Positions 9,990-63,395 of a stretch of 64,000 nucleotides of DNA are shown here, piece by piece (within the stretch, counting starts at the first letter, position 1; each line of letters starts with the position of its first letter). A program made the position numbers and the translations under genes. Location: positions 926 to 64,925 of the forward strand of contig JAFTKK010000064.1 of NCBI GenBank assembly GCA_017453325.1, given 5' to 3'. The notes under the pieces were generated by a model, which did not search any database, was not told the origin of the DNA, and saw only the letters and a program-made list of their open reading frames with translations. The stretch comes from Clostridia bacterium. GTDB lineage: Bacteria; Bacillota; Clostridia; Oscillospirales; CAG-272.

Positions 9990-10031
9990 AAAAGCACGGG
10001 GAGAACTGAGTTCAGTTCTCCCCGTGTTTTT
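9988..10031. terminator. bidirectional terminator between coaW and lipoprotein paralog 1
   Basis: CACGGGGAGAACTGA/TCAGTTCTCCCCGTG stem, flanked by AAAAAAG and TTTTTG. Confidence 0.8.
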
Positions 10032-10032
10032 G

Positions 10033-19671: not shown

Positions 19672-22110
19672 TTAAGAATTATTGTGAAGTGTTTTAATCA
19701 AGGAGCTCGAAATGCTGCCCGTTCCCTTGTTACTCTTATTATTCTCGGTAAGAGAATAGTAAGCCACCTTGGTGCCATCCGCCACGGTGCGCACACCCGA
19801 CTTGTTGGTGATTGCATCGTAAATACCATACTCGGGGCCGTTTGCGGTAATGGTAAGGGTGTAGTTGCAGTCGTCACTCAGAATAATGTACTGCGCGCTC
19901 GTCAGCTTATAATTGATGTTATAGCTTACCTTTTTGTAACCGTCGGACTTGGGATCATGGAAGCCCTCGCGGTAGGATTTGCGGCTGGTAGGCCACCACA
20001 CGCAAACGGGGTTGACCAATTGGTAAAACTCCCATTCACATCCGTTACCGCCGTGGTGCGCAACCTGCACCATATCGCTTTGCAAATATGCGCCGTAGGT
20101 AGCACGCATCCATTTGCTGGCGGCAGTCTGGGCATCACCCGTCCACAGCATCGTGGTCTTGGAGTTGGCCGATACTTCGCCGTTTTCGGTGTGATACATG
20201 GTCATGCGAATCACGGTGGAGGTGTTGTTGTAAACGTGGATCTGCTCGGGATAAAGATCCTCGTGCGTATACATGACCTCAAGCTCGATGTTGGCAAACC
20301 AGAAGCGCTGACCCGTGTGCACCTTGATGTAATCAAAGCCGGTCTTTTCCCCGGGAGCGTCAGACATCCAGGAGGAATATTCGGTCAGCTTATCACGCAC
20401 GGTATGGTTATACTGGGTAGCAAGGTTCCCCGACTCGGAATTATAATATTCTTCATCCGAGGCAAAGTTAGCAATGACGTAGTCAACGGTGATAAATTTG
20501 GTATTATAGCTTTTACAGTAGGTCTTCATAAAGGTGACCATGGAGCCGTAATGATCGTTGTGGCCGTGCGAGAGATACCAGGCCGTGATACGAATGGGAT
20601 CATTTGTGGTGGGGCCGTTGCCGTTATGCCCTTCCTTATAGAGCTCAAGCAAAACGTTGTAAATACGATCTGCATCGGTCGAATTGGGTGCACCGCCGTC
20701 AAGCACGATGAAGGAGCCATCCTCAAGAGTAACGACATAGAGATTGCCGAAGATTCTGGCAACGCCTTGCTCCTGCTCCTCTTTCGTGGGGAAGGTATAG
20801 CTGAGCTTGAGCGAGGTAATGGAGGAATCCTGCTTTTTCTCATAGGCGCCGCGAGACAAATACTCGGTAGCAAGCTGCTTGGTAGCACCAAGCGGCGAGG
20901 CCACGATGCGGATAGCGGGCTCGTGCGAGGTCACGCCCTGTGCGCTCGCGTGCTTAAAGGCGTTGTAAGCCACGTAGAGCGAAATGTTCTCGGCTTGATC
21001 GTTATAAATGCGGAAGATGCTGCCTTCTGCCTCGCTGCCGGAATAAAGCGTGTAGCCTGCAGCCTCCAGCGTCTTGCAGTAGGCGGTGTAGGTCTCGACG
21101 CCAAGAGAGCTGCCCGTGTAGTAATACTCCATGGCGCTGTCATGCACGTCGATACTGCCGGAAAGCACCGCACCCTCGGGACGCGGGAAATCGGTGACGT
21201 GCTTCTTATTGGAGGTGTCGGAATAAATACGGGAGAATTCGGCAGGCAGGAAGATACGGTTCTTTTCCTTACCGTCCTCTTCCACCGCGCAAACAGAATC
21301 CTTCAGGACGTCGGTAAACAAGGCGAAGGCCTTTTGCTGCATGGTATCGTTGAGGGCGGTGACAAGGATCTTGCCGTTTTTCACACCCACACCGTAATTG
21401 TTGATATCCATGCCCGCAATAAAGGCATCGGTCTCCTCTCGGTCAACAAGACCCACCAACACCTCTGGCGAGATGTTGAAGCCCTTATCCGAAACCGTGC
21501 CCATGGCCGAGCCGGTGATATCGGAGAACTTGCCGATCGCGGCCTTGCATTCGGTGATCAAAGAGTTGATGTAGTCGCGCTTGCCATCGAGACGGTTCGA
21601 ATAGATAAAGGCCCAGCTGCCGGTAAACTCCAGCATTTCCATTTCATCTACCACGGTGCGCGTCACGGTCAGCGAGGAGCCATCAAGTGCCGTGGGAAGG
21701 ATCTCGTCCTCAAAATGGTCAATTGCCATGGCGGTGAGCAACGGCGTGGTGCCGGCAATAACCAGCTTCTTCCCTACCGTCATAATCACGTAGCCGTGAC
21801 CCTTCACCTTTTTGAGGGCCTTTTGTGTTTCGGCACGATTGGTGTTGCCGATCAAAATCTCGGCATCCTGCTCGTCGGCCACGGCATCGTCAGCCTTGAC
21901 CTTCGAGGCTTCAAAATCACAGTCTGCCTTTTTCTCAAGTGTGCTGACAAAGGTGCGGATCAGGTCAGCGGTGGTATCGGTGACCTCGCTGCCCCAAACA
22001 ACACTGTATCCCTCAAGGTCAACGGACTTTTTACCGCACGAGGAGAACAGTATAGCTGTGGAGGCCAGCATACACAAACACAGCAAAAGGCAAAGGATTC
22101 TTCTTTTCAT
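19672..22110 (-). CDS. secreted lipoprotein, paralog 5 of the MBL-fold family
   Basis: Start moved to ATG 22110 (MKRRILCLLL...), behind GGGAGG. Lipobox FSSC. EILIGNTNRAETQKALKKVKGHGYVI. IVLDGG, SHGHNDHY (20548-20571), KVHTGQRF, LWTGDAQ, VAHHGG. Confidence 0.85.
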   Translation of the reverse strand: MKRRILCLLLCLCMLASTAILFSSCGKKSVDLEGYSVVWGSEVTDTTADLIRTFVSTLEKKADCDFEASKVKADDAVADEQDAEILIGNTNRAETQKALKKVKGHGYVIMTVGKKLVIAGTTPLLTAMAIDHFEDEILPTALDGSSLTVTRTVVDEMEMLEFTGSWAFIYSNRLDGKRDYINSLITECKAAIGKFSDITGSAMGTVSDKGFNISPEVLVGLVDREETDAFIAGMDINNYGVGVKNGKILVTALNDTMQQKAFALFTDVLKDSVCAVEEDGKEKNRIFLPAEFSRIYSDTSNKKHVTDFPRPEGAVLSGSIDVHDSAMEYYYTGSSLGVETYTAYCKTLEAAGYTLYSGSEAEGSIFRIYNDQAENISLYVAYNAFKHASAQGVTSHEPAIRIVASPLGATKQLATEYLSRGAYEKKQDSSITSLKLSYTFPTKEEQEQGVARIFGNLYVVTLEDGSFIVLDGGAPNSTDADRIYNVLLELYKEGHNGNGPTTNDPIRITAWYLSHGHNDHYGSMVTFMKTYCKSYNTKFITVDYVIANFASDEEYYNSESGNLATQYNHTVRDKLTEYSSWMSDAPGEKTGFDYIKVHTGQRFWFANIELEVMYTHEDLYPEQIHVYNNTSTVIRMTMYHTENGEVSANSKTTMLWTGDAQTAASKWMRATYGAYLQSDMVQVAHHGGNGCEWEFYQLVNPVCVWWPTSRKSYREGFHDPKSDGYKKVSYNINYKLTSAQYIILSDDCNYTLTITANGPEYGIYDAITNKSGVRTVADGTKVAYYSLTENNKSNKGTGSISSSLIKTLHNNS

Positions 22111-22167
22111 AAAAACCTCCCGTTTGCGAAACATTGCATAAACAATGCTGCCATATTAAATCATCTT

Positions 22168-22196
22168 ATTATACCATCCATCACCTTTCTTTGCAA
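22168..22196 (-). promoter_or_regulatory. sigma-A promoter TTGCAA-17-TGgTATAAT for the paralog 5-4-3-2 transcription unit
   Basis: Minus strand reads TTGCAAagaaaggtgatggatggTATAAT, about 58 nt upstream of ATG 22110. Confidence 0.6.
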
Positions 22197-22342
22197 GTAA
22201 AGACAAAAATGTTTCACATTCCCATCAAAATTTTCATCACTTTAAACAAATTACATCCGTCACTTTTGCGCCATCTGCCCATGGCTATTTTATATAATGA
22301 TATTTATTTTGGTTTTTTGAGGAAGAAAACCGCATTGCATAC

Positions 22343-45957: not shown

Positions 45958-47034
45958 TCATCTTAAAATCGGGCGCAGCGTCTCTTCAAAACGGCAGGCA
46001 AAGCGATAAAAGCCAAGGTCGTTGGGATGGCCGCCGTCAACGGTGCAGGCATCCCATGCGTCGCCTGCAAAGATTTCGGCACCGTCAATAAAATAGACGT
46101 TTTGATCACCTGCGGCGAGTGCGCGCTCATAGGTCTCGCGGATGATCTCGCGGCGCACGCGACGGTCGCCCGACGGCAAAATCGGACGCAGAAGAATGCC
46201 CGGATTGCTGACAAAAACGATCGGCAACGTGGGCTGTGCGTCACGAATGATGCGATAGAAGGGATAGTGTGTGTTGCGTAACCACTCCTCGGAGGGGGCG
46301 TTACTGTCATAATCCATCACGAAAATGCTCATATCGAGCGTGGCAATATACGCAGCCATCTCGGGTTCACCGAGACCGTTGCCCGAAAAGCCGAGATTGA
46401 CGTGATCGACACCAAGGGTACGCGACAGCATGGCCTGATAAGAGTTACCGGGACGGGAGGCGCAGCCGCCCTGCGTGATCGAGCTGCCGTAATAAACGAT
46501 TGGTTTTTCGTGTTGGTAAGGCGTGGGGGCTGCAAGCTGCGCATCGTGCTTGATGGCCACGTAAAGCTCCTTCACACCGTCATAAAGCGGAAAATTGATG
46601 GTATAATCTGTCATTTCACGCGGGGTAAAGATCCCCGAGGAATACCCGTCGGTCAGATCACGGGGCGGCACAAAGCTGCGATAATAGGTGTCTCTGCCCT
46701 CCACCACGTGGTAAAGATCAAAGCCCGATTGACCCGTCAGGGGCATATGAGACATATTTTTCACATGATCCATCACGGCGCGAATGGCAATATACTGCGA
46801 GTTGGTGCGAAAACGCACGCGACCGCCCGCCGTGTGACGGTTGAGGCCGCCGCGCACACCCTTTGAGATGCCGTTGGCCGTTTCCTGCGGCACGCGCAGA
46901 TAACAACCCTGCTCCTCATCGTAAAGCACACCGTAGATCACAAAGGGTAGCTCGCGCACATTGAACCAAACAAGATCGGGCTCGGTAATATCGGTGTCAA
47001 CCTTTAGATTTTTATCAAAATCCTCAATTTTCAT
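45958..47034 (-). CDS. SGNH/GDSL hydrolase with N-terminal GxDLY domain, paralog C (last in operon)
   Basis: PLTGQSGFDLY, YYGSSITQGGCASRPGN, LGFSGN, DGGHPND. Start ATG 47034 overlaps the upstream stop (ATGA). Confidence 0.8.
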   Translation of the reverse strand: MKIEDFDKNLKVDTDITEPDLVWFNVRELPFVIYGVLYDEEQGCYLRVPQETANGISKGVRGGLNRHTAGGRVRFRTNSQYIAIRAVMDHVKNMSHMPLTGQSGFDLYHVVEGRDTYYRSFVPPRDLTDGYSSGIFTPREMTDYTINFPLYDGVKELYVAIKHDAQLAAPTPYQHEKPIVYYGSSITQGGCASRPGNSYQAMLSRTLGVDHVNLGFSGNGLGEPEMAAYIATLDMSIFVMDYDSNAPSEEWLRNTHYPFYRIIRDAQPTLPIVFVSNPGILLRPILPSGDRRVRREIIRETYERALAAGDQNVYFIDGAEIFAGDAWDACTVDGGHPNDLGFYRFACRFEETLRPILR

Positions 47035-48119
47035 TTCTTCAATGCCTTTCTGACATCGCGGCCAATGCGCGTTGCCATGCGCACGAAGCCGCAATCATTG
47101 GGGTGCGTACCGTCAACCGTGCAAGCATCCCAGTTATCGCCGCCAAACAGCTGCACACCATCGATAAAATAAACATTGTCATCACCTGCGATGCGCGCAT
47201 GCTCATAGGTGCGGCGAATGATATTACGTCGTGTAAAGAATCTGCCTCGCCCAAAATAATTCATATTTCCACGCAGCTTTGTGTTCGGTGCGGTCACAAA
47301 AACAACGGGCAGATCCGGATGCTTGGCACGCACAGTCTTGAAAAAGAGCTCGTGCGTTGCCAAGAGATGCTCCTCGCTGGGGGTGTTATGATCGTAATCA
47401 AGAACAAACACGCTCATATCAAGCGTAGCAATGTATTCTGCCATGGCAAGCTCGCCCTTGGCGTTGCCCGAAAAGCCGAGATTGATATGATCTGCATCGA
47501 GCTCGCGGCCGATGATGGCCTGATAGGCATTACCGGGACGCGAGGCACAACCGCCTTGCGTGATCGAGCTGCCGTAATACACCACGGGCTTTTCGATGGC
47601 ATAGGGCGTGGGGGCGCTTAGATGTGCGCCCTTTTTGAGCGCAATATGCAGTTCCTTCACGCCGTCGTAAAGCGGAAAATTGATGGTGTAATCGCAGTAC
47701 GTGCCATCGGTTCTGTGACCCGAGGAATAGCCCTCGGTCATACCGTGGGGCGGCACGAATGTCTGATAATAGATCTCCTTGCCTGCCGCGTTTCTGTGAT
47801 AGAGATCAAATCCCGACTGACCCGTCAGAGGAATATGCGACATCGGGGTGCCGTTGTGCATCACCGCGTGAATGGCAATATACGGAGAATCCGTACGAAA
47901 CCGCACACGGCCGCCTGCGGTATGGCGGCAAAGCTTTGCCACAGGCTGCGACACGGTCTGCGCCACGGCAATCGGCATACGCACGTAGCAGCCCGCACCC
48001 TCGTCATAACTGACCCCATAAAGCCGAAAAGGGGCTTGCTTTGCGTCAAACCATACAAGGTCGGGCTCCGTGAGCGCGGTCTCTACCTTTAAATTTTGGT
48101 CAAGATCCTCAATTTTCAT
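47031..48119 (-). CDS. SGNH/GDSL hydrolase with N-terminal GxDLY domain, paralog B
   Basis: Same motif set (PLTGQSGFDLY, YYGSSITQGG, DGTHPND). ATGA overlaps at both ends. Confidence 0.8.
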   Translation of the reverse strand: MKIEDLDQNLKVETALTEPDLVWFDAKQAPFRLYGVSYDEGAGCYVRMPIAVAQTVSQPVAKLCRHTAGGRVRFRTDSPYIAIHAVMHNGTPMSHIPLTGQSGFDLYHRNAAGKEIYYQTFVPPHGMTEGYSSGHRTDGTYCDYTINFPLYDGVKELHIALKKGAHLSAPTPYAIEKPVVYYGSSITQGGCASRPGNAYQAIIGRELDADHINLGFSGNAKGELAMAEYIATLDMSVFVLDYDHNTPSEEHLLATHELFFKTVRAKHPDLPVVFVTAPNTKLRGNMNYFGRGRFFTRRNIIRRTYEHARIAGDDNVYFIDGVQLFGGDNWDACTVDGTHPNDCGFVRMATRIGRDVRKALKK

Positions 48120-49204
48120 TTAAGAAGCACCTTTCTCACATCTTTTCCGATACGCGTGGCCATGCGGAAAAATCCAAGATCGTTGGGGTGGGTGCCATCC
48201 ACCGTGCAGGCATCCCAATCTTCGCCCTTGAAAAGCTGCGCGCCGTCAATGAAATATACGTTTTTATCACCTGCGATCAGCGCGTTTTCATAGGTGCGCC
48301 GAACGATGGCACGACGCGCGGTAAAGCGGCCGTAGCTGAATTTTTCATCGCCCTTTAAAAGAACATTGGGAGCGCTGACAATGATGATGGGGAGCGTGGG
48401 ATGGGCGGCGCGCACGGCTTTGAAGAAGGGCTCGTGTGTTTGCTTCAAATGCTCCTCGTTATTGGTATTGTGATCGTAATCCATCACAAAGGCGCTCATA
48501 TCAAGCGTGGCAATATACTCTGCCATACCAAGCTCACCCTTGGCGCTTCCCGAAAAGCCGAGATTGATGTGGTCAACACCAAGATGGCGGGAAATGATGG
48601 CCTGGTAAGCGTTACCGGGACGGGAGGCACAGCCGCCCTGCGTGATCGAGCTGCCGTAATAGACAACGGGCTTTTCGATGGCATAGGGCGTGGGCTCACT
48701 CAGATGTGCATTGCGCTTGAGAGCCACGTAAAGTTCCTTCACGCCGTCATAAAGCGGGAAATTGATGGTATAATCCGCCTCGGTGCCCTCTACCCAATGC
48801 GCAGAGGAATAGCCCTCGGTCATACCGCGGGGCGGCACAAAGGTACGATAATAAAGATCCTTTCCCTTTTTGTCAACGCGGTAAAGATCAAAGCCGGACT
48901 GACCCGTCAGGGGCATATGTACCATGGGGCTGCCGTTTTTCATCACGGCCTTGATGGCAATATAGCGCGAATCGGTGCGGAAGCGCACGCGGCCGCCTGC
49001 CGTGCAGCGATTAAGGCTTCCCGAAACGTTTTGAGAGATGGCCTCGGCCGTAGCCTGCGGCATACGCACGTAGCAGCCCATAGTTTCGTCGTAAATGACG
49101 CCGTAAAGCCGAAACGGCAGCTCGCGCACGTTAAACCAAACAAGATCGGGCTCGGTAATGGTGGTTTCCACCACAAGGTTTTTGTCGATATCTTCAATTC
49201 TCAT
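48116..49204 (-). CDS. SGNH/GDSL hydrolase with N-terminal GxDLY domain, paralog A (first in operon)
   Basis: Same motif set. Start moved to ATG 49204 (MRIEDIDKN), behind AAAGGGA. Confidence 0.8.
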   Translation of the reverse strand: MRIEDIDKNLVVETTITEPDLVWFNVRELPFRLYGVIYDETMGCYVRMPQATAEAISQNVSGSLNRCTAGGRVRFRTDSRYIAIKAVMKNGSPMVHMPLTGQSGFDLYRVDKKGKDLYYRTFVPPRGMTEGYSSAHWVEGTEADYTINFPLYDGVKELYVALKRNAHLSEPTPYAIEKPVVYYGSSITQGGCASRPGNAYQAIISRHLGVDHINLGFSGSAKGELGMAEYIATLDMSAFVMDYDHNTNNEEHLKQTHEPFFKAVRAAHPTLPIIIVSAPNVLLKGDEKFSYGRFTARRAIVRRTYENALIAGDKNVYFIDGAQLFKGEDWDACTVDGTHPNDLGFFRMATRIGKDVRKVLLK

Positions 49205-49267
49205 ACAAATTCCCTTTCCGCGCTTGCGGGAGAAAATATGCCCGCCGCACATAGCTTTTTCACCGTT

Positions 49268-50932: not shown

Positions 50933-50967
50933 AAAAAACCTCACCGCCGCGTGCGGTGAGGTTTTTT
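50933..50967. terminator. bidirectional terminator between the AEC transporter and the giant protein gene
   Basis: CCTCACCGC/GCGGTGAGG stem, flanked by A6 and T6. Confidence 0.8.
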
Positions 50968-50992
50968 GTTTGATTAGTTGATCTTGAAAAAA

Positions 50993-53900
50993 TTATCCTA
51001 CGATCTCAACGATGCCGCCTGTGAAGATATCATACTTACCGTCGATCTCATCGAAGATATCGGGAGCGGGCATTTCAAAATTGAAGTTGCCGCGCCAGAG
51101 AATGATGCCGAGACCCTCGTAGGTGGCAGCTACGCCATCCTCATCGTTAAAGATGCCCGTGCCCCATGTAAAGGAGGTACCTGCAGAGCCGGGGTACACG
51201 TTGGTAATGGCTGCGATAAAGGCGTTGGCATTCTCCTCACCCTCGCCAAGACCGGTGATACCGTCCTTCGAGAGCGTCATAGTGGGATTGTAATGGTAGT
51301 TGTCACCGGGCGTAGCACCAAGAGGCTGACCCGTGAAGATATAAAGCCAGTTGGTATTCTTGATCCACTCGATGTTTTCTGCGTTATAGACTGTGCTGCT
51401 GGGGATGTCAAGATGGCCCTTCACACCGTCCGCGCAATGCGACCAAAGAATGACCTGTGCATCGATCAGCTCGTAGCACTCGCTCTCGATACCGTTGCCG
51501 CCGTGGTGCGCAGACAGAACCATATCGGACTTGAGATAATCACCCCACAGCGCACGTATCACCATGCTGCCACGCACCTGGAGGTCACCGAGGATCAAAT
51601 TGCTGATGGCACCGGTTCCGGTCAGGATGTTGCCGCTACCGTCGGTCTCGTGTGCGGTGAGACGGATGACGGTGGAGGTGTTGTTATAGTAGATCATGCT
51701 CCAAGGATGAATATCCTCGTGGGTATACATCACCTCAAACTCAAGATTACCGATGAAGAACTTCTGGCCGGTGTGTACCTTGTAGTAAGGAATATCCGTG
51801 CCGTTATTCTTATACCAGCTCAAGGTGCCGAGCTTGTTGGCTACGGTCTGGTTGGGGTCCATCGAGTTGTAGATCTCGTCGTTGGAGGCGAAGTTGGCAA
51901 TGATGGCATTGACCTGAACCTTGGAGGTGTAGCCGCTAGACAAGGAGAACGCATTGCAATAGGTGCTGATGAATTTATCCATCATGCCGTAATGGTCGCC
52001 GTGGCCGTGCGAGAGATACCATGCAGCGATCTGAATCTTGTTACTCTTGCTGGGAGCAGTACCGTGCACCTCTTCATACAGCGCCGCCAGCACATTGTAA
52101 AGACGCGCGGCATCGGTGGAGTTGTAGGCACCGCCGCCACCATCCAGCACCACAAAGGTACCGTCCTCAAGGGTGTAGATGTAACAGTAACCGAAGTTAC
52201 CTTCCTTGTTAGTGAGATTATAGCTCACCTCCATGGAGGTCAGCTTGGTAACAGTCTTTTTGCCCGTGGCCGCCACCTGCTTAAAGCTTTCGGGCAGAAG
52301 ATTGACATAGGTGCCGTCCACCTTTGCGGCGATAATACGGAGGGTGGGCGTAAACATCTTCGCGAGTGTGCCACTCTCACCGAGCTTTTCGGCTGCGGCG
52401 TGCGTGTAGGCGGTATACATCACGTGAATCGTGATCTTAGTGGAGGAGTTGTAATAGGTGACAAAGTAGTTGCCCTCAGCCGAGCGCTCGGTCATGTAAA
52501 CCGTAAAGCCCTTGCTTTCAAGCAACGCGCAATAAGCCTTGTAGTTTGCAACGGTTGCATTCTGATAGTAATATTCAAGCGAGTTGCTGTCTACGTTGAC
52601 CACGCCCGAAAGCTGGAGACCTGCGGGACGCGGGCACAGGGTGGTGTCAGTCACCAGAGCCTTTACCTCTTCGGCCACGTTGCCGGTGCCGGTAGCGCCT
52701 TCCACACTGTCAAAGGCACCCGTAAAGCCGTCGGTGCCGCTCTTCTCTACCGTGTAATCAACGGGCAGCATGTAAACGCCGCTATCGGTTGCGAAGTCCG
52801 CAAGGTCCGCGAGGAACAGATCCTTGGCAAGACGCAAAGTGGAATCGTCAAAGGCGGTGATGAAAATATCGCCATCCTTGATCACATAACCGTAATAGCC
52901 TGCGTCGTGACCGAGCAACGCGTTGGCAAGCGCCTCTTTGGTGATACCGATCTGAATGGTGTGGTCATCCAGATTGAAGTTGTCGGGCACGTAGGTGAAG
53001 TTGTAGCCGGAAGCGTCAAGCTGGTCGCCGATTTTCATCGCAGCAAACACGGGATAGTCCACGTAAGTCTGCTCATTGCCCTCTTTGTTGTAAAGGTGAT
53101 CGGTAGAACTTTGAATAAAGTTGAAGGATTCGTAAATTCTGGTACCGCCGCCGGTATAGGGCTCCCAGATGTTACCGTCACGCGTATGGGAGAATACGAT
53201 AGGCGTATCACTGCTCAGCGATACCAATTCGACATTGGAGGCAACACACTCCGAAACGATGAGCTTGCCGTCATCCCCTGCCTCGGGCAGAATGGTATTT
53301 TGGAAAACGGAAAGCGCCTGCATCGTCAGCGCATTGGTGGTACCCACGATCACAATCTTGCCGTTGATCACGCCGATGTAATAACCCTCGCCCTCGATCT
53401 CGGAGAGTGCGGTGGTGGTTTCGGCTTCGCCCGTGTTACCGACAAGGATGGCGGCACCGGAAGCGGTGTAGCCCTTGGCGCTCAGCGCATTTTTCAGCGT
53501 GGTGGTTGCTGCTGTGGTGAGATTGGCGCTGGCATCACTACCTACCGTAACGGCAGTAGAAGGAGTGACGGTACTGACATCATAAGTGTGCTCGTAGCCA
53601 CAGTAGCTCTTGAGAATTTTCTGCTCCTCGACGTCAAACGAGGTAAAGCCGTACGGATTGTAAATCGAGGTCACCATGTGATTCTCATCGGGCACGGAAA
53701 CCGTGGTGGTGTAGGCCATTTTTGCCACGTGAGCCATGGTGGAGGCATTGCTCACAACATCGAAATCGCTGTAGTAGTAAACGCCGTCAACCAACACGTA
53801 CGCAACAGCCGCCAAATTACGGGTATAGTTCTGAATGGAGATCAGCGCCGCGCTGAAGGCGATGCTGCCATCGGACATTTTCACAATACTGTATTTGGCA

Positions 53901-56386
53901 GGAACATCCACAAAGGCCGTACCGTAAGAGGGGTTCTCCTTTTGCCACTCCTCAAGCAGCGCGTGCGTAAAGCCGCCTGCAGCCAGCACGTAATCCGCAG
54001 GGGCGATCAGCGTACCGAAGCTATAGCCCTCGGGCAGCGCGGAAACAACGCCGGCGGGGATATAGGAGGTAAAGCGGATACCCTCGTAATTGGTAGTGAC
54101 GGCAACGGCGGCGCCGTTATCCATCACGGGTGCATAAGTGCTGTCGGCAGAGGCGTCAGCCGAATAGCAATAGTAGTTTTGGTTATTGTACTTACAAGTC
54201 GCAGAGCTCTCGTACAAGCGCACATCGGTGCCAACAAGATCGTTCACGTCGATCATATAGAGCTGCACGTAACGGGAAAGCAGCACGGCGCCGTCCACGA
54301 TCACGCGGGAGGTACCGACGCTGGCATCAATGATCTGGCTGTTGTTCTCGCGGTTATCGATAAACACACCGCCAAGAAGGTTGATATCCGCACCGGAGAT
54401 AGCGTAAATGTTCGTGGGGTCGTAATACTGGCCTACGTTTTGCGGAACGACGGACACACCCGTACGAATGATCGCGCCGCCGAAGGTAGCGGAGCTATTA
54501 TTGAGACGGAAGGTGCCGCCCTGAATGGTGAGAGAGCCGGCGCCCTCGGGAATGAGCATTTTAATCAGGCAAGCGCTGGTACCGGTAAAGCTGCCGTTTT
54601 CCACGGTCACGGTACCCGCACCAAGGTTCAGGATCGAGGAGCTGTCAACTGCAGTAAAGGTGCCGTTCAAAATATTCAGCGTGGCGCCCTGCGCCTTCAT
54701 AGCAATAATATCAGCAGTGGATTGCGCAGTAAAGGTCGCATTGGAAACGGTTACTGTGGAAGCACCCGTTACCTGAATACCATCGACATTATCCTTGACG
54801 GTAAGCAAACCGCCCAAGACGCTGACGGTAGCACCGTCGGCATTGACACGGATGAGCGAGCCCTCACCGGACTTGGTATAGGTGCCGCCCGAGGTACAAT
54901 CGTAGCTCTTTCCGTCCACGGTAAAGGTGCCCTTGGAAAGAATCAGCGTGCCGCCCACGTTTTCATCGGTCTCCATGCCGAAGATGGCACCGGTCGTGCT
55001 GGTGCCGGCCAGTTTGAAGGTGCCGCCGTACACGTAAGCCTTGCCCGCTTTTTCAAAATGCAGTACTGCACCGGTGCTGATGTTGGCGGCAGAAACGTAA
55101 GTGCCGTCAAAGTTACCGCCGTAGATCTTGAGTACCGCGGAAGCGCTGCGGATATCAACGATCTTGGCATTGAGTTGGCCGGGGTTGTGATAGAAGTTAC
55201 CGCCGGTAACACTCACAGTACCGTCAACGGAAAGTGCACGGTGACCGAAGAAGGTACCGCCCGACACAATCGCATTGGTACAGGTAGGACCCAGGCGAAG
55301 GGCCTGCTGGCTATCACCGCCCATGAAGGTACCGCCGCTGATGCGAACGGGCTTCGAGGTAGCAACATAAACACCGTTGCAGCAGGAAAAACCAAGCGAA
55401 TTGGAATACTTGGTATCTACCAGGGTGATATCAATCTCTGAAGGATCGGTCAAGGTGTCAACATAGGTAAAGAAGCCGTCGGTAATGGTCACCGTAGTGC
55501 CGTCATAGGCTCTGAGAATATAGGCACCCGACAAGGAGTAAAAGCGACCGCCGTTGACCGTAAGCTCACCCAACTGAGAGTTAACAGGATAGTACGAGCC
55601 GGAGCCGCTGGCAGTAACCACGGGATCCTTACTGCTATCATCCGGATTGCCGTTAATGGTAAGATGGCCGGTGCTGGTCGACATATAGATTGCGGCGCCG
55701 CCGGAGTAGCTACCGGTTGTGAAATCCCAGGTAAACGTACCGCCGTTGATGGTAAAGGCAGTATACTGCCTTGCCAAACGCACCAAATAGGAAGCACCCG
55801 TATTCTTGGTGTTCTGCGAAAAAGTACCGCCATTGATGGTCAGTACGGTATCCTGCGTCGACGTGCCGCCGGTGGAGCCTGCGTCCGAGGCATAGGTGCC
55901 TACCGCACCGACGAAGGTGCCGTCGCTGATCGTCACCGTCGCTGAGCCGTCAACGGTGACGGCTGCGGCCACCTCGGTCGTAGTACCCTGCGAGGTGTAG
56001 GAACCGCTTTCGATGGTCACCACGGTGGAAGCGCCGTTGATCATCACCGCGTTATCCTGCTTGGAAAGCACGGTAATGCTCTTGAGCGTGACCGTACCCG
56101 CATTGATGCAAAGGCTGCCGCTTGAAAGCGTAATGGTGACGCTCTCGCTGCTGCCCGTGACCGTGTAGGACTTAGCCTCACTCAAGGCGATATCACCTGC
56201 TACGGTAACGTTTTCGGTTACCGTGACGGTTCCGCCATTGGCTACGGCCGCAACCGCTTCCTCAAGCGTAGCATAAGAGCTCCCTCCCGTGCTGAACGGG
56301 GTGGCAGCAGAGGCTACCACCGCGGTGACGGTGACCAAAAGAAGCACCATAACCGCGAAGAGAATCACACGCAATTGTTTTTTCAT
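50993..56386 (-). CDS. giant secreted protein: Sec signal peptide, about 18 GGTF-type beta-helix-like repeats, then the same GH20b-like x2 plus ComEC-type MBL module as the five lipoproteins (paralog 6)
   Basis: Start moved to ATG 56386 (MKKQLRVILFAVMVLLL...VASA|A), behind AAAGGAG. Repeats include TINGGTFSQN, TINGGTFTWD, VNGGRFYS, ISGGTFMGG, VSGGTFFGH, VTGGNFYHN, IYGGNFDG, VYGGTFKL, IQGGTFRL and others. C-terminal part: AILVGNTGEAETTTALSEIEGEGYYIGVI, VVLDGGGG, SHGHGDHY (51989-52012), KVHTGQKF, LILGDLQ, SAHHGG. Confidence 0.85.
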   Translation of the reverse strand: MKKQLRVILFAVMVLLLVTVTAVVASAATPFSTGGSSYATLEEAVAAVANGGTVTVTENVTVAGDIALSEAKSYTVTGSSESVTITLSSGSLCINAGTVTLKSITVLSKQDNAVMINGASTVVTIESGSYTSQGTTTEVAAAVTVDGSATVTISDGTFVGAVGTYASDAGSTGGTSTQDTVLTINGGTFSQNTKNTGASYLVRLARQYTAFTINGGTFTWDFTTGSYSGGAAIYMSTSTGHLTINGNPDDSSKDPVVTASGSGSYYPVNSQLGELTVNGGRFYSLSGAYILRAYDGTTVTITDGFFTYVDTLTDPSEIDITLVDTKYSNSLGFSCCNGVYVATSKPVRISGGTFMGGDSQQALRLGPTCTNAIVSGGTFFGHRALSVDGTVSVTGGNFYHNPGQLNAKIVDIRSASAVLKIYGGNFDGTYVSAANISTGAVLHFEKAGKAYVYGGTFKLAGTSTTGAIFGMETDENVGGTLILSKGTFTVDGKSYDCTSGGTYTKSGEGSLIRVNADGATVSVLGGLLTVKDNVDGIQVTGASTVTVSNATFTAQSTADIIAMKAQGATLNILNGTFTAVDSSSILNLGAGTVTVENGSFTGTSACLIKMLIPEGAGSLTIQGGTFRLNNSSATFGGAIIRTGVSVVPQNVGQYYDPTNIYAISGADINLLGGVFIDNRENNSQIIDASVGTSRVIVDGAVLLSRYVQLYMIDVNDLVGTDVRLYESSATCKYNNQNYYCYSADASADSTYAPVMDNGAAVAVTTNYEGIRFTSYIPAGVVSALPEGYSFGTLIAPADYVLAAGGFTHALLEEWQKENPSYGTAFVDVPAKYSIVKMSDGSIAFSAALISIQNYTRNLAAVAYVLVDGVYYYSDFDVVSNASTMAHVAKMAYTTTVSVPDENHMVTSIYNPYGFTSFDVEEQKILKSYCGYEHTYDVSTVTPSTAVTVGSDASANLTTAATTTLKNALSAKGYTASGAAILVGNTGEAETTTALSEIEGEGYYIGVINGKIVIVGTTNALTMQALSVFQNTILPEAGDDGKLIVSECVASNVELVSLSSDTPIVFSHTRDGNIWEPYTGGGTRIYESFNFIQSSTDHLYNKEGNEQTYVDYPVFAAMKIGDQLDASGYNFTYVPDNFNLDDHTIQIGITKEALANALLGHDAGYYGYVIKDGDIFITAFDDSTLRLAKDLFLADLADFATDSGVYMLPVDYTVEKSGTDGFTGAFDSVEGATGTGNVAEEVKALVTDTTLCPRPAGLQLSGVVNVDSNSLEYYYQNATVANYKAYCALLESKGFTVYMTERSAEGNYFVTYYNSSTKITIHVMYTAYTHAAAEKLGESGTLAKMFTPTLRIIAAKVDGTYVNLLPESFKQVAATGKKTVTKLTSMEVSYNLTNKEGNFGYCYIYTLEDGTFVVLDGGGGAYNSTDAARLYNVLAALYEEVHGTAPSKSNKIQIAAWYLSHGHGDHYGMMDKFISTYCNAFSLSSGYTSKVQVNAIIANFASNDEIYNSMDPNQTVANKLGTLSWYKNNGTDIPYYKVHTGQKFFIGNLEFEVMYTHEDIHPWSMIYYNNTSTVIRLTAHETDGSGNILTGTGAISNLILGDLQVRGSMVIRALWGDYLKSDMVLSAHHGGNGIESECYELIDAQVILWSHCADGVKGHLDIPSSTVYNAENIEWIKNTNWLYIFTGQPLGATPGDNYHYNPTMTLSKDGITGLGEGEENANAFIAAITNVYPGSAGTSFTWGTGIFNDEDGVAATYEGLGIILWRGNFNFEMPAPDIFDEIDGKYDIFTGGIVEIVG

Positions 56387-56436
56387 GTTCTTTCTCCTTT
56401 CCTGATGCGGAAATGCGCATAGCACGCGCGCTGGCA

Positions 56437-56461
56437 GCGCGTATGCATGCGCGTATATATA
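56437..56461. repeat. 25-bp perfect alternating purine-pyrimidine tract in the leader of the giant gene
   Basis: GCGCGTATGCATGCGCGTATATATA, embedded in a palindrome-rich leader (ACGCGC, GCATGC, ATGCGCAT, CGCGCTG-C-CAGCGCG). Confidence 0.7.
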
Positions 56462-56472
56462 ATACATAATAA

Positions 56473-56501
56473 ATAATACCACTCTCTTTTTTGGCTGTCA
56501 A
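56473..56501 (-). promoter_or_regulatory. promoter TTGACA-17-TGgTATTAT for the giant gene
   Basis: Minus strand reads TTGACAgccaaaaaagagagtggTATTAT. Leader is about 80 nt. Confidence 0.6.
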
Positions 56502-56691
56502 GCACAGCATTTGCATTTTCTCTCTTTTTACCAATTTTAAGAATAAAATTATTTTTCAAAACGTGGCACCATAAGGGTTTGGCGCATCTGCTTATTTTTT
56601 CATTTTGTTTAAATTCACCAAATGCATTTCAGCAAGAGCCCTCGCCTCACAAGCAAAGCCACTATTTCAAGCAGTGCTTGCCACAACCACC

Positions 56692-56729: not shown

Positions 56730-57236
56730 TCATCCGTTTGACAGCAGCTGCTGCATGAGAGTATAGAGTGTGTCGTACACCACGGCGTCCTTGGGGGTAA
56801 AGCAAAAGGCGGTGCCGTCAGCGTAAAAATAGATTTCATTTTCAGTAAAATACAGTTCCGCGCGCGTACCGTCGGCCGCACGGAGCTGCCACTTGAGATC
56901 CCAGGCTCCTGACAGCATTTTGCGGTTTTCGGTATTGTGAAATCCCGCCCGCACAACAACCGCCAGCTTTTCGCGCAAGGCCGTCACATCCTGCGCACGC
57001 AGCAAGACCTCCTTGCCGCGCGAGGCAAGCGGATCATCGGTTTTAAAAAGCGGGTCTATGAGCAGCGCTTCTTCATAACCGCCAAATCGAAGCTGCTCCA
57101 CGCGGTCATAAAACATACGGTTTTCACGGGTATAGGGTACGAATATCGTCAAAAAAATGATGATGACGGCAAGTGCCAGTACCACAATGCCGGCAAGTGT
57201 CACGCCATATCCCTTTTGGGATGTCTTTTTTTGCAT
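56730..57236 (-). CDS. hypothetical N-terminally anchored membrane protein
   Basis: 168 aa. TM segment VTLAGIVVLALAVIIIFLTIFV followed by a soluble domain. Lies 54 nt downstream of the GerA/SpoVAF-family gene. Confidence 0.45.
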   Translation of the reverse strand: MQKKTSQKGYGVTLAGIVVLALAVIIIFLTIFVPYTRENRMFYDRVEQLRFGGYEEALLIDPLFKTDDPLASRGKEVLLRAQDVTALREKLAVVVRAGFHNTENRKMLSGAWDLKWQLRAADGTRAELYFTENEIYFYADGTAFCFTPKDAVVYDTLYTLMQQLLSNG

Positions 57237-61317: not shown

Positions 61318-63195
61318 TCAGAGATAAATGCAGGGTGTGACAACACGCCCCCAGCAACGGATAAAGGCAACATAAGGGCTTTCCTCTACCGTGCGAGGCT
61401 GGAACGGCAGCACCTCTTCGTCAAGCTCGGGCAGGCTGCTGACAGCGCCCGTCAAATACTCGTTGATGCGGTCAACCGTTGTCACAAGGCGCATACGCAG
61501 ACCGCCGAGACGCTGCTCCTGCACCTCAAAGCCGAAGGGCTTGCTTTCGGTGTACCATTGGCGACGGTGAGAGGCGTGGAACACATCCAGCTTCTCGACT
61601 ATCACGGGGATTTCGGCTGCAAGAGCCTTCAAGGCTTCCTTGTCGCCTGCCTTGTATGCGCGGCGCAGGCGCACCGAGAAATCAGCCTTTTGCACCAGGA
61701 TCGCGCAAAGATTGGCAAGGTTTTCAAAGATGTATCCAAATCTCTTATGCCCTGCAAGCGCACGCAGACGCGCTTCATTGGCACGGTAAGCATCGGCTAC
61801 CGTATCGGGATTCATATGCAGGTTGAAAAGACCCTCAATGGGATCGTTATACAGAAGATATTTGCAAGGATTGATGGGGTTTTTCACAAAGCTCTCCGTG
61901 CCGGGCAGCTCATTGGGAGCATCCACCGTCAAAAACTCCTCAAAGCCAATGTCAAAGCAGGCACGGGCGCGGGCCTCAAGCTGCTCCTTAGTGGGCTTTG
62001 TAGTGCTGTATGCCGCCTCGGCAAAATACAGCAGCGTGGGATAGTGGGCAAAATGAGAGGTCTCGCTGCCGTTATCGCCCCAAGCGGTCACAATGATATC
62101 GTTGATGCCGCGCTTGAAGCACTCCTCACATTGCATTTCGCTGTAATAAAGCGAGAAACGGTTGCGCGGCGCAAAGGTGCCCCAGCGCCAAGCGCCGCCC
62201 GCAAAGGCCACGGGCACGCCCTGAAGCTTCGTGTGACAATCGACCATATGGCCAAAGAATTCGCTATCCTTTGCGTAATAGTCCCAATAGATAAGCGTGA
62301 CGTCACGCGGGATCTTGGCAGCGACCTCGGCGGGGATCTCACCCTCGCGCACGTAATATTTATGGTCAAAGGCCATGCGGAAGAACATATCGCTCCACAT
62401 CATGGGGGCCAGTTCATACTTCTTGCAAAGCTCCACCACACGCGTCAGGTGCTCAAGAATGATCTCGTGTGCGGGACGATATCCGTTCTGATCAAGATAT
62501 TTGCCGCGACCGAGGTTGTGCGCCTCATCCATGCCGATGTTGATACGGCGGGAACGGAAGGTCTTTGACATGGTAGCGATCATCGTTTCGATCAGCTTAT
62601 CCGTTTCGGGGTTGCCTACCAGCAAAATATCATCCATATCGTTGATGGGGGTAAAGACATTCCAGTTCAGCGCCTGCTTCATGTGCGCGAGAGTTTGAAT
62701 ACAGGGAATGACCTCAATACCGAGGGCGTATGCATAATCGTCGATCTCACGCAGCTCGGCAAGAGAGTATTTACCGCGCATATAACCGAAATAAGGATAA
62801 TCGGGCAGCTCGTAGGTATCCTCGGTATAGAGCATCAAGCTATCATAGCCCATCAAAGCAAGATCGCGAAGCATCTGCTTGACACCGTCCATATGCATGA
62901 CCGCGTTACGGGACATATCCTCCATCAGGCAGAGCGTGGTAGCACGGCAGCGCTCGGTGATATCGGCACCGCCGTCAAGCTTTGACTTCAAATGCGAAAG
63001 TGCGCGAAAAAAATCGGTCGCGCGCTCGGCGGTGATCACAAGTGAATCCCCCTCCGAGGTCAGCGCAAGGCCCTTGCCGCGCTTCACCGTAACGGGGGTA
63101 CCGTCAGCGGCGGTGGTAAGACCAAGCTCGGGCAGAAGCTCGGCGGTTCCCTGCTTCCATTCCTCGGGCAGGTTCAAAAAACGGATTTTACTCAT
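61318..63195 (-). CDS. glycoside hydrolase family 20 (beta-N-acetylhexosaminidase-like)
   Basis: N-terminal GH20b-like domain followed by a TIM barrel with INIGMDEAHNLG (catalytic D-E pair). Start moved to ATG 63195, behind AAAGGAG. Confidence 0.75.
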   Translation of the reverse strand: MSKIRFLNLPEEWKQGTAELLPELGLTTAADGTPVTVKRGKGLALTSEGDSLVITAERATDFFRALSHLKSKLDGGADITERCRATTLCLMEDMSRNAVMHMDGVKQMLRDLALMGYDSLMLYTEDTYELPDYPYFGYMRGKYSLAELREIDDYAYALGIEVIPCIQTLAHMKQALNWNVFTPINDMDDILLVGNPETDKLIETMIATMSKTFRSRRINIGMDEAHNLGRGKYLDQNGYRPAHEIILEHLTRVVELCKKYELAPMMWSDMFFRMAFDHKYYVREGEIPAEVAAKIPRDVTLIYWDYYAKDSEFFGHMVDCHTKLQGVPVAFAGGAWRWGTFAPRNRFSLYYSEMQCEECFKRGINDIIVTAWGDNGSETSHFAHYPTLLYFAEAAYSTTKPTKEQLEARARACFDIGFEEFLTVDAPNELPGTESFVKNPINPCKYLLYNDPIEGLFNLHMNPDTVADAYRANEARLRALAGHKRFGYIFENLANLCAILVQKADFSVRLRRAYKAGDKEALKALAAEIPVIVEKLDVFHASHRRQWYTESKPFGFEVQEQRLGGLRMRLVTTVDRINEYLTGAVSSLPELDEEVLPFQPRTVEESPYVAFIRCWGRVVTPCIYL

Positions 63196-63240
63196 GGCGT
63201 ACTCCTTTCTAAGAGGGCAATCATTCATGAATTTTACAAA

Positions 63241-63270
63241 AACATTATATATCGTAACATTATATATCGT
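63241..63270. repeat. perfect 15-bp tandem duplication AACATTATATATCGT x2 that duplicates a TATAAT box
   Basis: Copy A is 63241-63255 and copy B is 63256-63270. The minus strand reads ACGATATATAATGTT twice. Confidence 0.9.
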
Positions 63271-63287
63271 CCGCAAGAGCAAGTCAA
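63259..63287 (-). promoter_or_regulatory. promoter TTGACT-17-TATAAT for the GH20 gene
   Basis: Minus strand reads TTGACTtgctcttgcggacgataTATAAT. The -10 lies in repeat copy B. Confidence 0.55.
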
Positions 63288-63395
63288 CAAACGATGTTGC
63301 GCTTTTGTGGCACAAACTTGCTGATCCACACCATTTTATCACGCCTTTTCGCCGAAAAACAAGCTATATTTTGCTATTTAAAGATCAAAGTTGTA

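Follow-up and report, generated by a model that had tools for sequence, protein, structure and literature searches.

A metallo-β-lactamase module shared with five tandem lipoproteins is joined to a predicted beta-helix stalk in a 1797-residue protein of a gut Clostridia bacterium

The nearest solved relatives of the protein described here are surface phosphodiesterases and sulfatases of the metallo-β-lactamase (MBL) superfamily. The C-terminal domain (CTD) of ComEC is an extracellular, Mn-dependent phosphodiesterase/nuclease, and the nearest solved relative of that domain is Pce, a teichoic-acid phosphorylcholine esterase; in ComEC, one motif II His of the ligand set is replaced by Asp and the motif III His by Asn (PMC8579336). 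Two further kinds of described system are relevant, namely beta-helix passengers, stalks and tailspikes, which are extracellular and adjoin a functional head, and glycosidases of families GH20, GH84 and GH67, which carry an alpha/beta domain together with a TIM-barrel catalytic domain. We analyzed 64,000 nucleotides from the assembly of an uncultured gut Clostridia bacterium (GCA_017453325.1, contig JAFTKK010000064.1, positions 926 to 64,925), referred to below as the window, in which the gene at 50993-56386 on the reverse strand encodes a 1797-residue protein (the long protein). The long protein joins a predicted beta-helix to an MBL-containing module that is also found in five lipoproteins of the same window. 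With a probability of roughly 0.55, we read it as an ester hydrolase with a binuclear metal center, either secreted or bound to the wall, that is carried on a beta-helix stalk and is probably a phosphodiesterase. Its parts, and the five lipoprotein genes, are the following.

50993-56386, reverse strand: open reading frame of the long gene, ATG at 56386, stop codon at 50993-50995, 1797 amino acids
56306-56386, reverse strand: predicted signal peptide, amino acids 1-27, with MKKQLR, a hydrophobic core of 18-21 residues and ASA↓A
54152-56305, reverse strand: stalk, amino acids 28 to about 745, predicted right-handed parallel beta-helix of about 71 short strands in about 23 rungs, with a long-hairpin excursion at amino acids 229-307
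53570-54151, reverse strand: junction region, amino acids about 746-939, containing ...GIRFTSYIP...FGTLIAPADY..., of low AlphaFold2 confidence (13 sequences)
53267-53569, reverse strand: module domain 1, amino acids about 940-1040, beta-alpha-beta-alpha-beta-beta-alpha, first EIL.G module, predicted local distance difference test (pLDDT) above 90 in AlphaFold2
52787-53266, reverse strand: module domain 2, amino acids about 1041-1200, second EIL.G alpha/beta domain, with a long-form-specific disordered insertion
52265-52786, reverse strand: linker and middle domain, amino acids about 1201-1374, a small beta-beta-alpha-beta4 domain
51245-52264, reverse strand: MBL catalytic domain, amino acids about 1375-1714
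50996-51244, reverse strand: C-terminal extension, amino acids about 1715-1797, found in long-stalk forms only, with conserved LWRGN...P..P...D
10033-12402, 12513-14828, 14874-17246, 17305-19638 and 19672-22134, reverse strand: five tandem lipoprotein paralogues (p5 is the last listed)

In BLASTP, the long protein and the five lipoproteins were 31-36% identical across 690-777 aligned positions, with E values from 3e-90 to 1e-110. The matches took up amino acids ~946-1715 in the long protein and almost all of the mature part in the lipoproteins. This C-terminal likeness had been proposed in an earlier note on this DNA, and it was borne out in BLASTP, in a multiple alignment and in the confident fold predicted for the module. 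Exactly six copies of the module were detected within the window by tblastn. The end of the lipoprotein array (22134) lies 28.9 kb from the long gene (50993), in agreement with the separation of about 29 kb given in that note, and the motif strings it had quoted were all present in the long protein: the two EIL.G segments at amino acids 979-1018 and 1143-1181, VVLDGGGG at 1412, SHGHGDHY at 1459, KVHTGQKF at 1536, LILGDLQ at 1597 and SAHHGG at 1625. Direct sequence search of the long protein against the PDB returned no match, and Pfam and NCBIfam scans of the long protein, and of its stalk, junction and tail segments, returned nothing useful.

The module was modeled with AlphaFold2 on residues 940-1797 (858 amino acids) using 41 homologues, with a pLDDT of 84 and a predicted template-modelling (TM) score of 0.85. 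Module 1 of the long protein matched module 2 of paralogue p4 (E 2.6e-4), and the two EIL.G domains are, judging by sequence, internal duplicates. By profile, and with an equal order of secondary-structure elements, these domains resemble domain 2 of GH20 enzymes, the N-domain of GH84 enzymes (BT_4395) and the N-domain of GH67 enzymes. The family profile matched residues 42-111 of the O-GlcNAcase BT_4395 at E 0.0025; the Pfam model Glyco_hydro_20b matched 2 of 41 family members (best 1.1e-6) and GH67N matched 1 of 41 (7e-4). For this protein the likeness is weak: in Pfam, paralogue p2 scored E 0.03 and the long protein alone gave no match. In the glycosidases the domain accompanies a TIM barrel; here it is duplicated and joined to an MBL domain, and no TIM-barrel glycosidase catalytic domain was found by Pfam in any family member. 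The middle domain was predicted with high confidence at residues 320-416 of the module model (~amino acids 1259-1355) and is conserved in all paralogues. Foldseek gave no confident fold match for it; only the MBL part of the module was matched. Two insertions in the alignment were specific to the long forms. The C-terminal extension of ~80 residues is acidic and not hydrophobic, has no sorting motif, and was partly ordered in the model with a disordered tail.

The predicted metal ligands of the MBL domain are complete in the long protein: D1414 (motif I), H1459-x-H1461-x-D1463-H1464 (motif II), H1538 (motif III), D1601 (motif IV) and H1627/H1628 (motif V). In the 41-sequence alignment, HxHxDH, the motif IV Asp and the motif V HH were invariant and the motif III His was retained in at least 90% of sequences; further conserved family motifs (NF.S..E.YN, THED..P and N..S) lay around the active site. 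Foldseek searches with the module produced 21 matches at E <= 1e-3, all of MBL fold (8gyg, PNGM-1, RNase Z/ELAC2, 2az4). The matches to the MBL domain ranged from E ~1e-7 to 3e-4, and the best was 8gyg, a Pseudoalteromonas arylsulfatase (E 1.4e-7, TM score 0.50 normalized to the target). The Pfam model Lactamase_B had no match in the long protein at E <= 0.1, scored 30.5 bits on p1 and 27.3 bits on p4 against a cutoff of 22.7 bits, and matched 28 of the 41 family members at E <= 0.01.

Sequences of the PDB were then searched with two profiles, one of the whole module and one of the MBL domain only. The MBL-only profile matched four separate ComEC/Rec2 entries (E 1.3e-5 to 0.08), YjcS (2e-4) and Pce (0.04); the corresponding values for the whole-module profile were 5.2e-5 and 6.5e-5 for ComEC/Rec2, 7e-4 for YjcS and 0.028 for Pce. 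NCBIfam gave only ComEC/Rec2 and metal-dependent-hydrolase hints, of which the former was sub-threshold and occurred in a paralogue: p5 scored 19.9 bits against TIGR00361 (cutoff 190) and 21.6 bits against PRK11539 (cutoff 969), and the long protein matched neither. The ComEC/Rec2 CTD (COG2333), the best sequence match among solved structures, aligned with the second half of the MBL domain. It shares with the module the pattern N[DN]xS...GD...LKSD..Q.aHHG, a binuclear-metal MBL fold and a site outside the cytoplasmic membrane. However, the motif II and motif III changes of ComEC are absent from the present family, which keeps the canonical SHGHGDH and KVHTG, and ComEC has a competence channel and an OB fold, whereas the long protein has neither (one hydrophobic segment and no Competence or DUF4131 match in Pfam). 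Compared with ComEC, the module has three extra N-terminal domains, and the long protein also has the beta-helix stalk. Given the canonical ligands and the lack of a channel domain, the family is a neighbor of ComEC-CTD and Pce and not a member of the ComEC family.

Pneumococcal Pce/CbpE (PDB 1wra) is, as the long protein is predicted to be, a surface MBL enzyme with canonical Zn ligands and a separate surface-targeting module. The family profile aligned across most of the Pce MBL domain at marginal values (E 0.03-0.04). Pce has choline-binding repeats, whereas the module has none, and the accessory domains and overall size differ. Among the MBL sulfatases, 8gyg was the best structural match, while YjcS (4pdx) matched the first half of the MBL domain (E 2e-4). 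Resemblance to these sulfatases is limited to a TM score of ~0.5 on the target at 10% identity, and no Alkyl_sulf_dimr or Alkyl_sulf_C domain (SdsA1-type dimerisation and SCP2-like domains) was found in the family by Pfam.

The N-terminal half was modeled with AlphaFold2 on residues 1-960 using 13 homologues. The model contained ~71 strands of 3-7 residues between amino acids 52 and 742, with pLDDT above 90 in most 10-residue blocks from amino acid 30 to ~640. At three strands per rung, the rung size was ~29 residues, and at 4.8 Å per rung the predicted stalk would be an estimated ~11 nm long. In Foldseek searches of the PDB, the best 50 matches of the stalk were all right-handed parallel beta-helices, including pertactin, Ag43, EspP, IgA1 protease, tailspikes, PL6 lyases, AlgG and GH110, and most of the best matches in a library of viral structures (BFVD) were of the same kind. 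The scores were weak (best E 2.7e-3, TM score at most 0.30) and therefore support the fold class but not membership of a particular beta-helix family; the right-handedness is that of the matched folds. The stalk shares the predicted fold class, with three-stranded rungs of ~29 residues, with pertactin (1dab), Ag43 (7ko9), EspP, phage tailspikes and PL6 lyases, and like them would be extracellular and adjoin a functional head. It differs from these in having no autotransporter barrel, a Firmicute host and a position N-terminal to an enzyme. Thus, the suggestion that the N-terminal half folds as a beta-helix was upheld, as a predicted fold class, by the strand stack and by the nature of the weakly scoring matches.

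The same earlier note had counted about 18 degenerate GGTF-like repeats at a spacing of 35-45 residues. The enrichment of the motif was confirmed, but 18 strict copies and a regular spacing were not. The strict pattern [TI][IV].[GN]G.F occurred 6 times in amino acids 1-800, compared with a mean of 0.02 in shuffled sequences, and a looser GG.F-type pattern gave 18 matches at irregular spacings of 7-76 residues (mean ~36). No one period dominated in a BLOSUM autocorrelation of the stalk, where the highest z was 3.4 (offsets 97 and 83). The regular spacing was therefore rejected in favor of irregular rungs. No second copy of the N-terminal half was found within the window by tblastn. Pfam and NCBIfam scans of the stalk, even at E <= 1, found no match, with no PbH1 or Beta_helix model and no pectate-lyase signature. 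Nor did tblastn detect the stalk or the module in any of 50,697 phage genomes, so that an origin of the stalk from a phage tailspike is not supported.

Related stalks were found in front of other catalytic heads. Amino acids 732-876 of the long protein, comprising the end of the stalk and part of the junction, aligned at 44% identity with part of P0007, a protein whose signal peptide and stalk are of the same kind but whose head is Metallophos plus Laminin_G_3; a similar stalk precedes a SASA sialate-O-acetylesterase-like head in P0010. The junction region itself had no Pfam match. Since similar signal peptides and stalks stand ahead of different heads, the stalk looks like a reusable carrier, and the sequences suggest a common display scaffold for several hydrolases. 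P0007 and P0008-P0010 are giant proteins (1853-2984 amino acids) from related metagenomes, with an MKKQLR...ASA signal peptide, stalk-like repeats and other heads. The MBL module, in turn, was found behind BspA-type leucine-rich repeats (LRR) and behind Listeria-Bacteroides repeats in other proteins. In P0138 (1978 amino acids), five BspA-type leucine-rich-repeat regions precede a C-terminal MBL module. The module is also at the C-terminal end of P0121 (6405 amino acids) and of P0166 (3153 amino acids, with no Pfam match).

The long protein and the lipoproteins differ in their predicted export signals. The signal peptide of the long protein ends in VVASA↓A, is by rule of the Sec/signal peptidase I type, and was modeled by AlphaFold2 as a helix at amino acids 3-26; the A-x-S-A↓A site is kept in orthologues. 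It is the only hydrophobic segment of the long protein. The lipobox pattern [LVI][ASTVI][GAS]C was not found at its end, and the first Cys is residue 93, whereas all five tandem paralogues have a lipobox (SAC, ASC, TSC or SSC). The difference in signal type, Sec against lipoprotein, was also drawn in the earlier note and is therefore real. In searches for cell wall-anchoring signals in the long protein, regular expressions found no LPXTG-type sortase motif and no C-terminal hydrophobic segment, and Pfam found no SLH, LysM, CWB, dockerin or other wall-binding domain.

The distribution of the family was examined by searching the module profile against 1.84 billion cluster representatives. This search recovered 5419 representatives at E <= 1e-3, of which 1189 reached E <= 1e-30, annotated only as "hypothetical protein" or "MBL fold metallo-hydrolase". 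Most of the best matches were proteins of 730-840 amino acids; many others were long proteins with the module at the C-terminus, of 1250-1980 and up to 3153 and 6405 amino acids. Loci retrieved with family-specific peptide patterns came nearly all from metagenome-assembled genomes (MAGs) of uncultured Oscillospiraceae, Clostridia or Eubacteriales from animal guts. The family genes are typically arranged in tandem, and arrays of 2-4 lipoprotein copies recurred in relatives, with varying copy number.

In related MAGs the gene order PFK-GerA-orf168-long gene-Mem_trans-(UDG)-GxDLY esterases-helicase was conserved. The flanking GerA and PFK proteins were 84-92% identical between these MAGs, compared with 41-58% for the long protein, and this faster divergence is as expected for an exposed surface protein. 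Long-form orthologues ranged from 1253 to 1829 amino acids, with stalks differing in length by ~500 amino acids, and in full-length orthologues the stalk half was 48-53% identical and the module 58-66%. In a neighbor-joining tree of the module columns, drawn without support values, all long-stalk forms fell into one clade that was sister to lipoprotein p2. These sequence relationships suggest one old fusion that was vertically inherited, rather than a recent local fusion. The long form is also subject to tandem duplication: an Oscillospiraceae SIG675 contig (L049, 10001-24020) carries two adjacent long-stalk copies of 1339 and 1341 amino acids. Beyond GerA, the same locus holds a third large gene of at least 1601 amino acids that is cut by the locus end.

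Under the favored reading, the protein would be exported by the Sec pathway and cleaved at ASA↓A to yield a mature protein of four parts: the stalk, the junction, the four-domain module and the long-form extension. A metal-bridged hydroxide at a predicted binuclear center would hydrolyze an ester bond of a substrate outside the cell. Since the closest relatives of known structure, ComEC-CTD and Pce, are phosphodiesterases of the cell surface, this bond is most likely a phosphodiester; the likeness to 8gyg and YjcS makes a sulfate ester the second choice. The glycosidase-type accessory domains, the expansion of paralogues and the acidic charge weakly favor glycopolymer-linked esters over the substrates of a generic nuclease. 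In the lipoproteins a lipid anchor would hold the module at the membrane, and in the long protein the beta-helix occupies the position of that anchor, where it may target or space the catalytic head on the cell wall or on a polymeric (glycan) substrate.

Several observations weigh against this reading. The long protein has an isoelectric point (pI) of 4.5 and a net charge of -84, the MBL domain a pI of 5.3 and the lipoproteins a pI of ~5.1; for proteins of so strong a negative charge, polyanions such as DNA and teichoic acid would be ill-suited substrates. Enzymes whose substrate is known are only distantly similar (by sequence, E 1e-5 or worse, and a TM score of ~0.5 over the MBL domain only), and a literature search found no paper on the module family and no characterized member. 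Six or more divergent paralogues point to a range of substrates or to antigenic diversification more than to a single simple activity. The genes around the long gene, the array and distant family members are housekeeping genes that give no operon or substrate clue. Cleavage of the signal peptide and the location of the protein were judged by rule alone. The beta-helix matches are weak, and the stalk may have a catalytic role.

A bolder form of the same reading, which we put forward tentatively and consider unlikely as a whole, is that the MBL domain, guided by the two glycosidase-type domains, cleaves phosphodiester or sulfate-ester decorations on glycopolymers, with the stalk acting as a reusable glycan-binding scaffold.

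That the long protein is instead an extracellular nuclease, in which a ComEC-type MBL domain on a stalk breaks down DNA or RNA from the environment to obtain nutrients or remodel biofilms, appears doubtful. ComEC/Rec2 was the best match both among solved structures by sequence and in NCBIfam, ComEC-CTD has nuclease activity (PMC8579336), RNase Z/ELAC2 was among the fold matches, and MBL domains of the COG2333 type are present in surface nuclease homologues of haloarchaea (PMC3929857). Yet the ComEC-specific ligand changes are absent, with canonical HxHxDH and the motif III His in their place; the proteins are very acidic (pI 4.5-5.1); Pfam scans found no OB-fold or other nucleic-acid-binding domain; the accessory domains are glycosidase-like; and a non-specific nuclease would hardly account for six divergent paralogues.

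It is improbable that the stalk is itself active on polysaccharides, as a lyase, glycosidase or depolymerase, which would make the protein bifunctional. PL6 alginate lyases, GH110, AlgG and tailspike depolymerases were among its fold matches, but these matches were weak (E >= 2.7e-3, TM score <= 0.3), non-catalytic beta-helices of the autotransporter type matched equally well, and the stalk had neither a Pfam or NCBIfam signature nor a phage relative by sequence. Moreover, it is the least conserved part of the protein (~50% compared with ~62% for the module), varies in length by ~500 amino acids, and belongs to a type that also precedes unrelated catalytic heads.

There is only a slim chance that the enzyme is an MBL-type sulfatase acting on sulfate esters of host or dietary glycans, with the paralogues serving different sulfated glycans. 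The top Foldseek match was an MBL-fold arylsulfatase (8gyg) and the second-best sequence match an alkyl/aryl-sulfatase (YjcS), the accessory domains are glycosidase-like, the habitat is the gut, and GH20C and SGNH esterase genes lie nearby. However, 8gyg led the tRNase Z-like and PNGM-1 matches by a small margin, the YjcS match was mainly over the generic HxHxDH half, and neither SdsA1-type dimerisation or SCP2-like domains (Pfam) nor a sulfatase-linked gene context was found. An adhesin or variable surface antigen in which the MBL module is a binding head and not a catalyst is very improbable: rapid divergence relative to the flanks, a stalk resembling pertactin and Ag43, fusion of the module to BspA-type LRR and Listeria-Bacteroides repeats elsewhere, and tandem arrays of varying copy number would suit it, but the metal ligands are conserved in 41 diverse members (motif III His in at least 90%) together with the family motifs around the active site, which indicates selection for catalysis.

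Expression signals of the long gene were located on both sides of its open reading frame, as listed here.

56514-56534, reverse strand: upstream box TTGGTAAAAAGAGAGAAAATG, 21 nt, immediately 5' of the -35 element
56473-56501, reverse strand: predicted sigma-70-type promoter, TTGACA, 17-nt spacer and extended -10 element TGnTATTAT, 11 of 12 consensus positions
56387-56466, reverse strand: leader of ~80 nt, with a GC-rich hairpin of alternating purines and pyrimidines at 56415-56452 and the ribosome-binding site GGAAAGGAG
50933-50966 (approximately), both strands: predicted bidirectional intrinsic terminator, stem CCTCACCGC...GCGGTGAGG between A-runs and T-runs, shared with the convergent Mem_trans gene

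All orthologues of the long protein share the start MKKQLR. An alternative GTG start at 56482 was ruled out by these orthologous starts and by the GGAAAGGAG ribosome-binding site ahead of 56386. The promoter had been described as near-consensus, and its 11 of 12 consensus positions and the TG before the -10 element bear this out. The core of the upstream box, TTGG(T/C)-A-rich-AGA, was invariant at six loci, namely that of the long gene and five orthologous MAG loci. The box occurs once within the window, where none is expected by chance, and could serve as an UP element or bind a regulator. A cis-element common to the promoters of the long gene and the lipoprotein array was searched for and not found. 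Since the box is unique to the long gene and the array promoter lacks it, co-regulation is not supported by the sequence.

The 87-nt stretch at 56380-56466 had a folding energy of -31.7 kcal/mol (z -2.7 compared with shuffled sequences). The steps of the leader hairpin are alternating CG/CA/TG, which as DNA would be prone to the Z form. Tracts of CG/TG alternation were present in five of six orthologous leaders, although the leader sequence itself is not conserved. A second, small hairpin in the leader overlaps part of the ribosome-binding site. An Rfam scan of the whole window gave no match, and the leader is therefore not a known riboswitch or leader RNA. A shorter version of the 50933-50966 terminator was also found by a terminator scan. 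With this strong terminator separating the long gene from the convergent Mem_trans transporter gene, the long gene is predicted to be monocistronic. The 168-codon gene upstream of it ends in a hairpin of its own, as read in the sequence.

An antisense open reading frame of 1487 amino acids (50978-55441, forward strand) was rejected as a gene. It shares the codon register of the real gene and is a by-product of the avoidance of TTA, CTA and TCA, of which the long gene has 3 in 1797 codons; p5 has none, and the housekeeping genes of the window avoid them likewise. Shadow open reading frames in the same register, also not genes, were seen at 10024-12393, 17332-19500 and 19684-22200 on the forward strand. 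For p5, the first gene of the array, the start is probably the second ATG at 22110 (MKRRIL...), with GGGAGG ahead of it, giving 812 rather than 820 amino acids; a promoter of its own at ~22160-22195 (reverse strand) reads TTGCAA ... TGGTATAAT.

Other genes near the long gene, all on the reverse strand, were also noted. Between GerA and the long gene, 56730-57236 encodes a 168-residue protein that has a single transmembrane helix at its N-terminus and belongs to no Pfam family; it is present in all syntenic relatives at 48-53% identity and is fast-evolving compared with GerA and PFK (84-92%). At 45958-49252, 1.7 kb from the long gene, are three tandem paralogous genes for esterases of GxDLY plus SGNH (Lipase_GDSL_3) architecture, whose copy number ranges from ~1 to 3 in syntenic relatives. 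Another glycan-processing gene, at 61318-63342, encodes a GH20-type hexosaminidase with a Glyco_H_20C_C domain.

Within the MBL superfamily the long protein shows a new variation in architecture, and it belongs to a large uncharacterized family of gut Clostridia. No established concept is overturned, and the biochemical function given here is an inference. If the bolder, glycopolymer form of the reading is correct, the family would be an MBL-based counterpart of the sulfatase and phosphodiesterase repertoires of Bacteroides, acting on host, dietary or microbial glycopolymers; gut Oscillospiraceae would attach one stalk to MBL, Metallophos and SASA heads; and the six genes of this window would belong to a large unnamed class of Gram-positive cell-surface enzymes. 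For abundant and poorly understood gut anaerobes, the family represents predicted surface-exposed metallo-hydrolases with an intact predicted active site. A single catalytic module appears to be used in two settings within one cell, on a lipid tether or on a beta-helix, and the beta-helix scaffold appears to be reused with different enzyme heads. Identification of the substrate would add a new activity to the processing of extracellular polymers by gut anaerobes.

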